Source: Candidatus Altarchaeum sp.
GTDB lineage: Archaea > Altiarchaeota > Altiarchaeia > Altiarchaeales > Altiarchaeaceae
Assembly: GCA_018260615.1 (NCBI GenBank)
Contig: JAGWDQ010000013.1
Location: 1-14,548, forward strand
Reading direction: 5' to 3'
Length of the DNA: 14,548 nucleotides
Numbering within the stretch: position 1 is the first letter of the stretch; each line of letters starts with the position of its first letter. Positions 3,714 through 6,294 of this stretch are shown piece by piece. Below the pieces are notes generated by a model. That model saw only the letters and a program-made list of their open reading frames with translations, had not been told where the DNA came from and searched no databases. A program made the position numbers and the translations under genes.

Positions 3714-3833
3714 TATGAGAATTTTATTAAAGTATTATTAAAAATTTGTAAATAATTAGAATGCAGGATAAAATTTAAGTAAAAAATATTGTAAAAACAC
3801 AGAAGGTAAAATTTAAAAATCCGGAAAATTTAA

Positions 3834-3905
3834 CGCTCTGGTCGGGATTCGGACCCGAGACACAAGCTCGACAGGCTTGTATGTTAACCGCTGCACTACC
3901 AGAGC
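3834..3905 (-). tRNA. tRNA-Asp(GTC), CCA not encoded
   Basis: Acceptor stem GCTCTGG/CCAGAGC, anticodon arm CAAGC-CTGTCGA-GCTTG, T arm TCGGG-TCCGAAT-CCCGA, discriminator G. Confidence 0.92.
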
Positions 3906-3928
3906 AAAAAATAACAAAATAAGAAAAA

Positions 3929-4056
3929 TCCCCCCTCCAGGATTTGAACCGGGGATCTTCCGGTAACTGCCTTGCCTACACGTCCCTTGCATTCGCAAGT
4001 TAGATGAATATATTACTGACTACAGCCGGACGCGTTAACCGCTACGCTAAGGAGGG
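3929..4056 (-). tRNA. tRNA-Tyr(GTA) with a 55-nt intron (3965-4019) at 37/38
   Basis: C1:G72/A73 archaeal Tyr identity. Anticodon arm TCCGG-CTGTAG|A-CCGGA. CUGU/GCAG 4-bp central helix with two 3-nt bulges (relaxed BHB). T loop TTCAAAT. Confidence 0.92.
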
Positions 4057-4114
4057 AATAAATTTTTCTACATTTTAATTAGGAATAAGACATTAAAAAA
4101 TAATGAATAAAACG

Positions 4115-4230
4115 AGTGATTTCGCTTTCTTTTCAGAATGCGAATTTGTTAAATTTTCAATATACCTCCAATCTAACTGGGTGACACCCGGCACCCTGTA
4201 TTCCATTTGCGAACGCATTTGGAATTGCTT
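4115..4230 (-). ncRNA. Putative omegaRNA scaffold (3' part) overlapping the tnpB 3' end
   Basis: Hairpins on the minus strand: TTCCA-AA-TGC-GTTC-GCA-AA-TGGAA (4201-4224), GGGTG..CACCC (4179-4196), and TTCGC-A-TTCT-GAAA-AGAA-A-GCGAA (4121-4144, GNRA loop) just inside the element end. The 5' boundary is unknown. Confidence 0.5.
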
Positions 4231-5377
4231 TCTTTATTATGTTGTAAGCACCATTTACATCAGCATTTATGATTTTGCCCGATAATGTTTTAAACAATCC
4301 TCTGCAAATTCTCTTTCCTAAATACCTATCATGATGCTTTATCGTTTCATCATCTAAAAAACTACATTTAGATGTATGTGCTTCATTAACAATTATTGTT
4401 TTGATTCCTTCCTCCTCTGCTTTATACTTGAGCATTTCTATCAGTTTATTGAAAGGAACAGATACAAAGTTTTGGTTGTTCTTCTTGCCGATATCAATTT
4501 TTTGCTTCCAGTCATTGTTGTGTCCGATTACTATTGTATCTATGCTATTCATCTTGCAAACAGCAATAATTTTTCTGCTTGCTTTATGAAAAAAGTCCTT
4601 TATTTTAAAATCCCTTTTTACCAATAGTTTATTCAGTTGTTTTGTCCGTCCTTTAACTCCGCTTAAATCATAGTTCGATTGTATTTCCGCCTTTCTTTTG
4701 TTGTAGAAATGATTGATTGATTTAACAATCCCGCCCTTGATAATAATTGGCATTTTGCCAATATTATCTGCAGTAGTTACGAGATTGTTAAGTCCTATAT
4801 CAATTCCCAAAATATTTTTAGTTGTTTCTATTAACGGTTTAATTGCCTTTTTATAAACAATATTGAGCATAAAGCCAACACCTTTTGGAACAATAGATGA
4901 AGTTCCAAGAACTGTTTCATCAGGCAATCGTGTTTTAACTTCAAGAACTATTTTTTTAGGAAATTCAACTTTATTTGATTTAATTTTAATCTGCTGATTT
5001 GTAAACAACAACATAAATTCACCATCTTTAGGTTTGTATCCAGGTAACGCTGGTTTGTTTTTAAACTTTTCAGGATGTTTTTTGTATTCTTTCATTGCCT
5101 TAAAGAATGCTTTCCAGTTTTTCTCAACCAATATCAAAATTTGTTGTGCTGTTGCAGCTGGCAATTGTTTAAAATTCTCACTATTCTTTAACAAATAATA
5201 CAATTGACTATATGTTATCCACTTCCCGGTTTTAATGAACTCCTGTCTGATGATGTAAATTGCTTCATTGTATAGGTTTTTAGCGATATGACATAGTTTA
5301 CTTAATTCCTTATTGGCGTTGAGCCATATCTGTTCTGTTCTGTTCACTCCAGTTAACACTTCACTTAACATTTTCAT
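4157..5377 (-). CDS. tnpB: TnpB RNA-guided endonuclease (IS1341-like), 406 aa
   Basis: N-terminal HTH (CHIAKNLYNEA), RuvC-I GIDIGLNN, RuvC-III NADVNGAYNI, degenerate Zn finger TSKCSFLD, C-terminal G..HP motif. Confidence 0.93.
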   Translation of the reverse strand: MKMLSEVLTGVNRTEQIWLNANKELSKLCHIAKNLYNEAIYIIRQEFIKTGKWITYSQLYYLLKNSENFKQLPAATAQQILILVEKNWKAFFKAMKEYKKHPEKFKNKPALPGYKPKDGEFMLLFTNQQIKIKSNKVEFPKKIVLEVKTRLPDETVLGTSSIVPKGVGFMLNIVYKKAIKPLIETTKNILGIDIGLNNLVTTADNIGKMPIIIKGGIVKSINHFYNKRKAEIQSNYDLSGVKGRTKQLNKLLVKRDFKIKDFFHKASRKIIAVCKMNSIDTIVIGHNNDWKQKIDIGKKNNQNFVSVPFNKLIEMLKYKAEEEGIKTIIVNEAHTSKCSFLDDETIKHHDRYLGKRICRGLFKTLSGKIINADVNGAYNIIKKAIPNAFANGIQGAGCHPVRLEVY

Positions 5378-5599
5378 ATAAATAATTAATTTTAAAACAA
5401 ATTAATAAAAAACAACAAAGCGAAATCACTAATAAAACATAATTAATTTCCACAAAATATCAATCAAAATGCTTAAGCCAAAACTTAAATTTAAGAGTAA
5501 ATTTATATATCTTGACATAATATTGGTTGTAATAGTTATTATCGCACTTGTCTTTATTTTTTTCACAAAAATTTGGAAATTTTAGTTTAAATCAAGTCA

Positions 5600-6037: not shown

Positions 6038-6294
6038 CTCACACATACTGAAACCTTCGGTTTCAATCTTTAAAAAACTACAAGTTTTTTAAAAAGCCAC
6101 AAAGTCACAGAGTATTTTAAAATCAATAGATTTTAAAAGATTGAAAATCTCACAGATTTTCAGTATTTAAAAAATTTATTTTTTAAAGATTGAAAACTTG
6201 TAGTTTTCAGTATATTTCTCCTTTCTGTCTTTTTCAAAACGCAGAGTTTTGAAAATCTCCGAGCAAGAGCGAGGTGACGGTGTCTCCGTGTGAG
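6038..6294. repeat. Array of palindromic modules bounded by CTCACAC/GTGTGAG
   Basis: Three AAAGATTGAAA-hairpin-TTTCAGTAT units (one reversed), TTTTCAAAAC-GCAGA-GTTTTGAAAA, one CTCCGAGC..GCGAGGTGA unit, and a 7-bp outer IR at 6038-6044/6288-6294. Confidence 0.75.

Follow-up and report, generated by a model that had tools for sequence, protein, structure and literature searches.

The window, the whole stretch of 14,548 nucleotides that was analyzed, is contig C13 of an Altiarchaeales genome (G000; 2.2 Mb, 33% G+C, 87% complete) from an uncultured groundwater archaeon. It contains a mobile element of 1317 bp (4114-5430, minus strand in tnpB orientation), whose extent is given by the boundaries of its copies and by the DNA missing from empty sites. 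The element carries tnpB as its only gene, is bounded by terminal inverted repeats (TIRs), and is flanked by a target-site duplication (TSD). Cas12 descends from TnpB, which is usually linked to transposases whose excision leaves no scar. The present TIR/TSD element is probably non-autonomous and mobilized by a predicted DDE-type enzyme acting in trans. An oriented TAT/ATTAT motif next to the duplication coincides with the position at which TnpB should read its own target motif.

A lone tnpB gene between terminal inverted repeats

The right TIR (4114-4131, GAGTGATTTCGCTTTCTT) lies on the 3' side of tnpB, and the left TIR (5414-5430), delimited by comparison of copies, lies on the 5' side. They share a perfect 14-mer, AGTGATTTCGCTTT at 4115-4128 and its reverse complement at 5417-5430, which extends to 16 of 17 positions. 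The TIR of the element is 15-18 bp long (GAGTGATTTCGCTTT), and the full ends read GAGTGATTTCGC... and ...GCGAAATCACTC. The outer TIR edges are located 42 bp beyond the stop codon and 53 bp ahead of the start codon. The perfect 14-bp repeats and both distances were thus correctly placed by the original prediction, which was made from the window alone. It had also noted the lack of a transposase, and the element indeed contains no transposase gene.

The genome contains six full copies with 91-96% identity (on C13, C24, C42, C69, C70, and C119), contig-end fragments on C26, C110, and C130, and one decayed left end on C44. Since the five further full copies start and stop exactly at the TIR, as do the three fragments, the repeat is not a product of chance. 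The tnpB frame is open in all six full copies. Two copies, L049 and L326, come from other metagenomes. L326 and the C42 copy are 48-95 bp longer than the remaining copies, and the extra DNA of L326 is a hairpin micro-repeat within the RuvC-III region of tnpB. Summed contig depth in two groundwater DNA runs places the element at about 6-25 times its flanks, which is a rough guide only to copy number. The assembled contigs of these two runs contain no join across the element and no circle junction.

The right end forms a hairpin followed by TCAC(TC), with a uniform junction base (C in 8 of 9). At the left end there is no hairpin, and the junction varies in position (6-8) and in the outermost base (G, A, T, or none). 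A related TnpB family in G002, 73% identical, again has inverted ends (20 of 22 positions, GCTTGTTGCAAAATAATTTAAT), but of another sequence. Inverted ends are therefore maintained while their sequence turns over, which argues that they are functional. In the related G002 element (L026, G002:C43), the 32-nt right end is duplicated 22 nt downstream (1700-1785 of the locus), and no flanking duplication is recognizable.

Solo right-end remnants of 17-20 nt (AAAGAAAGCGAAATCACTC) are present at L293 (G002:C12), L292 (G003:C38), and L295 (G003:C185:10481). The sister species with these remnants hold no full copy of the element. The G002 remnant is abutted by a different miniature inverted-repeat transposable element (MITE) with ends TGTAACTTCTCAATAA. 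Scans of metagenome and genome collections with the 14-mer TIR returned at least 119 matches each, mostly random and uninformative; the one relevant match among those listed was an Altiarchaeales contig with a solo right-end remnant.

Target-site duplication and empty sites

Two copies of AATAAAAC flank the element, at the right end (4106-4113) and at the left end (5431-5438). Empty sites in two sister species of the same genus, G003:C185 and G002:C79, both read ...AATAATGAATAAAACATAATT..., also written ...AATAATGAATAAAACATAATTAATTTCC..., and contain a single AATAAAAC. Insertion thus added 4114-5430 and duplicated 8 bp of the target. Both copies in the empty site, which would have refuted the original prediction, are not observed. 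The direct repeat had been predicted as 8 of 9 positions. The repeat itself stands, but it is 8 of 8, as the ninth base, G4114, is missing from the empty site. G4114 is the terminal base of the element and is carried by most other copies too.

Alignment of other copies and empty alleles, which the original prediction had proposed, reveals eight independent sites, each with its own duplication of 6-8 bp. In tnpB orientation every site is composed of a 5' flank, the repeat, a base X, the element (AGTGA...TCACT), a base Y, and the repeat. ATTAT forms the 5' flank at C13 (repeat GTTTTATT, no X), C119 (ATGTTGTT, X is G), C42 (ATTATTT, G), and C69 (AATTAT, A). The 5' flank is TTTAT at C110/C130, the two ends of one copy (ATAAATTT, G), TATAT at C26, which is the site of L326 (AAAGTAGG, no X), and AATAT at L049 (GTTATC, G). 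Y is C at all these sites. At C70, ATTAT precedes an imperfect repeat (ACCACTT / ACAACTT), and X and Y are both T. The reconstructed empty site of the C42 copy agrees with the sequence of G001:C46. C24 is the one copy without a repeat, and it adjoins a 139-bp deletion relative to G003:C47.

An alternative delimitation of C70, as an IS605-like element ending in TTAT, was rejected, since the segment from TCACT to TTAT differs in every copy. A few bases away from the position of the C42 copy, G001 carries a MITE of about 130 bp (L031, G001:C46:6650-7100). Its ends are GTAACTATTCAG, and an 8-bp duplication, TATTAAAT, flanks it.

An oriented motif at the expected position of a TAM

TAT stands immediately 5' of the left-end repeat copy at all eight sites with both flanks known, always in one orientation. 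ATTAT occupies the same register at five of the eight (six counting the imperfect C70 repeat). In the window, ATTAT at 5439-5443 (minus strand), read in tnpB orientation, adjoins the duplication on its 5' side and is a candidate target motif or transposon-adjacent motif (TAM). Against local background frequencies of 0.037 (TAT) and 0.0056 (ATTAT) per position, P is about 3e-12 for TAT at 8/8 sites and about 3e-10 for ATTAT at 5 or more of 8, uncorrected for post hoc choice. These values are far below chance even with generous correction for the post hoc choice of motif and register. The mirror position past the other repeat copy contains CAT, TAA, ATA, TTT, AAC, CCT, ATT, and ATG, with ATA at one site of eight. 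This mixture makes the motif preference asymmetric. ATTAT is kept apart from the element by the 6-8 duplicated bases.

The guide of TnpB is transcribed from the DNA just past the right end. By this rule, the predicted guide-encoding stretch is 4094-4113 (minus strand), 3' of the right end, and starts with the TSD copy. In the empty sites of G002 and G003, ATTAT runs straight into the sequence that flanks the right end, with identity over at least 24 nt; the empty site of the sister species is ATTAT + GTTTTATTCATTATTTTTTA. In the occupied allele, only 6-8 nt match the guide stretch. TAT/ATTAT is located where the TAM of TnpB should lie and is the predicted TAM.

The TnpB nuclease, its presumed omegaRNA, and its relatives

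The tnpB gene (4157-5377, minus strand) is an open frame of 406 residues. Its product matches OrfB_IS605 (65.5 bits) and Cas12f1-like_TNB (48 bits) in Pfam, and guided_TnpB in NCBIfam with 196 bits against a cut-off of 100. D193 (GIDIG), E332 (xE(A/S)HTS), and D373 (NADVN) are invariant in an alignment of 11 homologs of 52-72% identity. The canonical RuvC-II position is taken by an invariant glycine, Gly285 (IVIG(H/Y)N), and Glu332 is its downstream substitute. The zinc finger is reduced to a single invariant cysteine, C338. Domains and RuvC triad assign the protein to the effectors of obligate mobile element-guided activity (OMEGA), and the residue layout assigns it to the RuvC-II-rearranged type, as described for RIIr-5. 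The combination of glycine at RuvC-II with a relocated glutamate is reported for RIIr-5 and Fanzors in PMC10691335. The nuclease is intact.

The presumed omegaRNA scaffold (4114-4300, minus strand) overlaps the 3' end of tnpB. The last 190 nt ahead of the right end are predicted to form four stems, and comparison of the G000 family with that of G002 shows some compensatory changes. The consensus fold of nine copies from the two families contains 38 pairs, six of which have changes on both sides. The predicted terminal hairpin, UUCGC-A-UUCU-GAAA-AGAA-A-GCGAA (4121-4144, minus strand), is retained in the 73%-identical G002 family through two compensatory pairs (CG to UA). Its 3' arm is part of the TIR, in agreement with the earlier proposal that the right TIR is built into the terminal hairpin of the presumed omegaRNA. 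No Rfam family matches the 3' region of the element.

The TnpB clade is patchily distributed and present in 2 of 61 genomes of the class. Its nearest outside relatives are in Asgard archaea and Methanophagales, with 52-59% identity. A 72%-identical homolog is named 'Altiarchaeum virus transposase'; among viral contigs, no relative of the TnpB protein was found. A Promethearchaeota genome contains seven copies (73-100% protein identity to the query copy) that have asymmetric ends and no TIR. One of these copies is surrounded by a 14-nt inverted repeat, which the other copies do not bear out. TIRs are thus no general property of this TnpB clade, and from the sequences it looks as if the TIR/TSD architecture was acquired in the Altiarchaeales lineage.

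Search for the mobilizing enzyme

A transposase gene bounded by the TIR of the element, for which the original prediction had suggested a search, was not found. In G000 the 11-mer AGTGATTTCGC, with one mismatch allowed, flanks only tnpB copies, and its other matches are isolated single ones. Y1 TnpA (PF01797) was detected in none of the four genomes of the genus, which are 65-87% complete and so leave room for a missed gene, versus 21 of 61 in the class. Serine recombinase (PF00239) is likewise found in 0 of the 4, and no tyrosine-recombinase-type gene lies in or beside any element copy. The IS256, IS1595, and ISL3 families yielded nothing usable in G000. Cas1 occurs once per genome. Repeat families from a self-BLAST of G000 consist of paralogous genes (ATPase_2, TPR, beta-propeller, and others) and not of transposases.

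G000 contains four transposases of the DDE type. The ends most similar to those of the TnpB element belong to a multicopy IS5-like insertion sequence (IS) on C51, whose transposase contains HTH_Tnp_4 and DDE_Tnp_4. Its ends are GAGTGGTTGCGAATTAAG / GACCTGTTGCGAAATAAC, and it duplicates TA or TAWTA. The ends (GAGTGGTTGCGAATT) match those of the TnpB element at 11 of the first 15 positions, and the inner part shows 15 matches in 18 positions to the G002 ends. This resemblance fits the published link of TnpB to IS5-family (ISL2, IS1031) transposases. The IS5-like IS (locus L045; 317-residue transposase; ends GAGTGGTTGCGAATT / GACCTGTTGCGAAAT) is collapsed to a 1.1-kb contig in the assembly, with junctions on C147, C107, C98, and C80 / C37, C43, C136, C141, and C95. 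A 93%-identical copy is present in G002:C53.

Two other multicopy ISs are collapsed in the assembly. An IS1634-like IS (C19, L304; 536 residues, NCBIfam 234 bits) has ends CCCATTAGCACGAAAA and a duplication of about 6 bp, ATATAG. An IS1380/IS4-like IS (C28, L303; at least 514 residues), recognized by weak NCBIfam and Pfam DDE_Tnp_1 matches, has ends ACACCGATTTTCGCA and flanks that end in TTA or TAA. An IS1-family transposase gene present in a single copy (C42:1249-1989, L302:350-1090, minus strand; NCBIfam 192 bits) has ends GGTAGTGCTAAAC. A copy in G003:C180 is flanked by a duplication of about 8 bp (7 of 8), and homologs within the class are found almost only in this genus. The IS1-family enzyme is not proposed as the partner: the size of its duplication fits, but its ends are unrelated. 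The G000 gene, 3.4 kb away from the TnpB copy on C42, has one recognizable end, GGTAGTGCTAAACATGTAAGG. None of the candidate enzymes agrees with the TnpB element in both end sequence and duplication length.

Mobilization of the element

The element has the TIRs, TSD, multiplicity of copies, and lack of a transposase gene that characterize a non-autonomous TIR element. We therefore regard mobilization in trans by a DDE-type enzyme as the probable, though by no means certain, explanation. A DDE-type (RNase H-fold) transposase would recognize the inverted ends in trans and cut the target with a stagger of 6-8 bp at insertion, and fill-in would generate the duplication. Its gene may lie outside the assembled 87% of the genome, or within it but unrecognized. 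If TnpB and its omegaRNA work like those of other OMEGA elements, the guide would be read from the flank beyond the right end (TSD and downstream DNA), and in the unoccupied allele the TAT/ATTAT immediately 5' of the TSD would act as the TAM. TnpB would then cut empty alleles and spare its own occupied site, in which only 6-8 nt match. Such cuts would drive the spread of the element, by copying, to chromosome copies that lack it.

Two explanations could account for the constant TAT and the uniform orientation. The inserting enzyme may itself read the motif, as in IS605, where the target of TnpA equals the TAM. Alternatively, only insertions behind a TAM may have become fixed, through homing by TnpB.

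The original prediction had proposed an archaeal tnpB captured by a DDE-mobilized element. The TIR/TSD architecture agrees with this proposal, but since no DDE transposase with these ends was found, it is the architecture that points to DDE mobilization. Also in its favor are the inverted ends kept by the G002 family, the failure to find Y1 TnpA or serine recombinase in the four genomes of the genus, and the DDE transposases of G000, among them the IS5-like enzyme with its partly similar ends. Several observations weigh against the proposal. Neither G000 nor the three sister genomes nor the other loci compared yielded a transposase with matching ends. The IS5-like IS, with the most similar ends, duplicates only TA or TAWTA and not 6-8 bp, and the ends of the IS1634-like, IS1380/IS4-like, and IS1-family elements are unrelated to those of the TnpB element. 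A DDE dimer on symmetrical ends is not expected to pick one orientation relative to an asymmetric motif. The TSD length (6, 7, or 8) and the left outermost base vary more than would normally be expected of a single DDE enzyme. Finally, the 7-bp repeat unit of C70 is missing from the empty sites of G001 and G002, so that an extra 9-bp indel must be assumed in that spacer.

The asymmetry could also arise from insertion directed by the TAM, an unlikely alternative. TnpB, which also has an RNase H fold, would bind ATTAT, alone or with a partner, and set the right end behind it, and the second strand would be joined less exactly, 6-8 nt away. The occurrence of TAT at 8/8 sites in one register and one orientation speaks for this scheme, as do the contrast between a uniform right-end junction and a left-end junction that varies in position and last base, and the failure to find a cognate transposase. 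TnpB-only elements mobile without TnpA are, moreover, a long-standing archaeal puzzle (PMC3119063). However, a fixation bias driven by homing explains the same motif without new chemistry, and the pattern comprises only eight sites. The TnpBs studied so far cut far from the TAM and are unnecessary for transposition, and no TnpB is known to have strand-transfer activity. There is thus only a small chance that insertion is coupled to the nuclease's own TAM, with TnpB or a complex containing it reading ATTAT and fixing the position and orientation of integration. If true, this would be a guide-independent, TnpB-assisted transposition and would explain the spread of tnpB-only elements in archaea without TnpA.

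Less likely still is a non-DDE enzyme with a stagger of 6-8 bp, such as a tyrosine-recombinase-type enzyme, the core sites of which would mimic TIRs and the overlap of which would mimic a TSD. Tyrosine recombinases typically use an overlap of 6-8 bp, are orientation-specific, and read an asymmetric target, and elements integrated by them show inverted end sites and a short flanking direct repeat. These properties agree with the observed sites. However, the overlap must match between element and target, yet the repeat differs in every copy, and the copies lack such a gene in or beside them. In addition, the tyrosine-recombinase-linked TnpBs of PMC10691335 are all inactivated, but the present TnpB is intact.

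An IS200/IS605-type element of the IS1341 group, moved as single-stranded DNA by a Y1 TnpA in trans and inserted 3' of ATTAT, is very improbable, and so is its corollary that the inverted ends are a by-product of end hairpins and the flanking repeats a chance feature of AT-rich DNA. Its usual cargo is tnpB, its targets resemble the pentanucleotide ATTAT fixed in one orientation 5' of the left side, the right end is a hairpin followed by TCAC(TC), and the Asgard relatives (~57% identity) have asymmetric ends and no TIRs; but the duplication is proven by the empty site, which comes close to refuting it, each of seven further sites shows a 6-8-bp repeat of its own, a hairpin is lacking at the left end, and the 0/4 count of PF01797 in the genus against 21/61 in the class makes a Y1 origin of the copies unlikely. 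The original prediction had named this alternative. The fixed TAM-like motif (TAT, mostly ATTAT) that it implies is present but does not abut the element end; it sits 5' of the duplicated bases, which differ in every copy and separate ATTAT from the element.

Comparison with known systems

The original prediction had stated that IS200/IS605 and IS607, as the usual tnpB carriers, lack TIRs and TSDs, in contrast to the TIR transposons that carry eukaryotic Fanzors. This background is out of date, as DDE-associated TnpBs inside inverted terminal repeats, also in solo form, were described in 2023 (Altae-Tran et al. 2023, PMC10691335; review, PMC13565253). The tnpB-within-TIR architecture as such is thus not new. 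The DDE-associated elements fall into branches DDE-1 to DDE-6, with transposases of the IS630, ISL2, and IS1031 types. Like the elements described there, the present one is a prokaryotic tnpB within symmetrical inverted ends, with solo copies and apparently recent mobility, and no more than 250 bp separate the tnpB 3' end from the end of the element (42 bp here). In contrast to those elements, no transposase is present inside the same ends in G000 or in the sister genomes, which contain solo end remnants only. The duplication also differs, being 6-8 bp here versus 2-3 bp in the IS5-ISL2/IS1031 types or TA in IS630. Further differences from those elements are the RuvC-II-rearranged TnpB and the asymmetric ends of its Asgard relatives.

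New here is the oriented ATTAT at the TAM position. The analysis further contributes the proof by empty sites, the eight-site comparison, the RuvC-II-rearranged nuclease type, the contrast with the TIR-less Asgard relatives, and the survey of candidate transposases. A fixed, oriented ATTAT upstream of a variable duplication is not met in the passages of PMC10691335 and PMC13565253 considered.

The element shares with the IS1341 group of IS200/IS605 a tnpB gene with a 3' guide-RNA region, a right-end hairpin, and a left-side pentanucleotide in one orientation, and with the haloarchaeal members of that group (PMC3119063) the presence of multiple tnpB-only copies without tnpA. Unlike IS200/IS605, it has a perfect TIR, a proven TSD, a left end without a hairpin, and a pentanucleotide that does not abut it, and no Y1 TnpA was found in the genus. 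It differs from IS607 in its TIR and TSD and in the lack of PF00239 in the four genomes. TIR transposons with a Fanzor as cargo occur in eukaryotes (Bao and Jurka 2013, PMC3627910; PMC10530073). The present element resembles these in having a TnpB-family nuclease as cargo of a TIR/TSD element, with glycine at RuvC-II and a relocated glutamate, but has an archaeal host, a short protein (406 residues), and no transposase in cis. The MITE in G001:C46 likewise has TIRs, an 8-bp duplication, and no transposase, and belongs to the same host lineage. Its end sequences are unrelated, and the TnpB element is far from a MITE in its 1.3-kb length and full nuclease gene. An enzyme making 8-bp duplications is or was active in the host lineage.

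The element bears on the service that TnpB renders to a duplication-making transposon and on the spread of tnpB-only elements in archaea. It is a clean natural case, namely a young multicopy family with a duplication proven by empty sites and an intact nuclease with a Fanzor-like active-site layout, and constitutes a prokaryotic parallel to Fanzors in eukaryotic TIR transposons. Its predicted TAM (ATTAT) can be tested directly, its guide and target are defined, and it poses the concrete question of whether the motif is chosen by the inserting enzyme or selected by TnpB homing.

Neighboring features in the window

A tRNA gene with a long intron (3929-4056, minus strand; Rfam tRNA, 47.2 bits, full model), which was missed by ARAGORN, adjoins a tRNA-Asp gene (3833-3906). 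The TnpB element lies about 58 bp upstream of the 5' end of the intron-bearing gene and thus probably in or near its promoter region. On the other side of the element, a short repeat (6045-6217, about 100-170 nt) recurs at dozens of positions, on either strand, in every genome of the genus and is probably an abundant hairpin micro-element.

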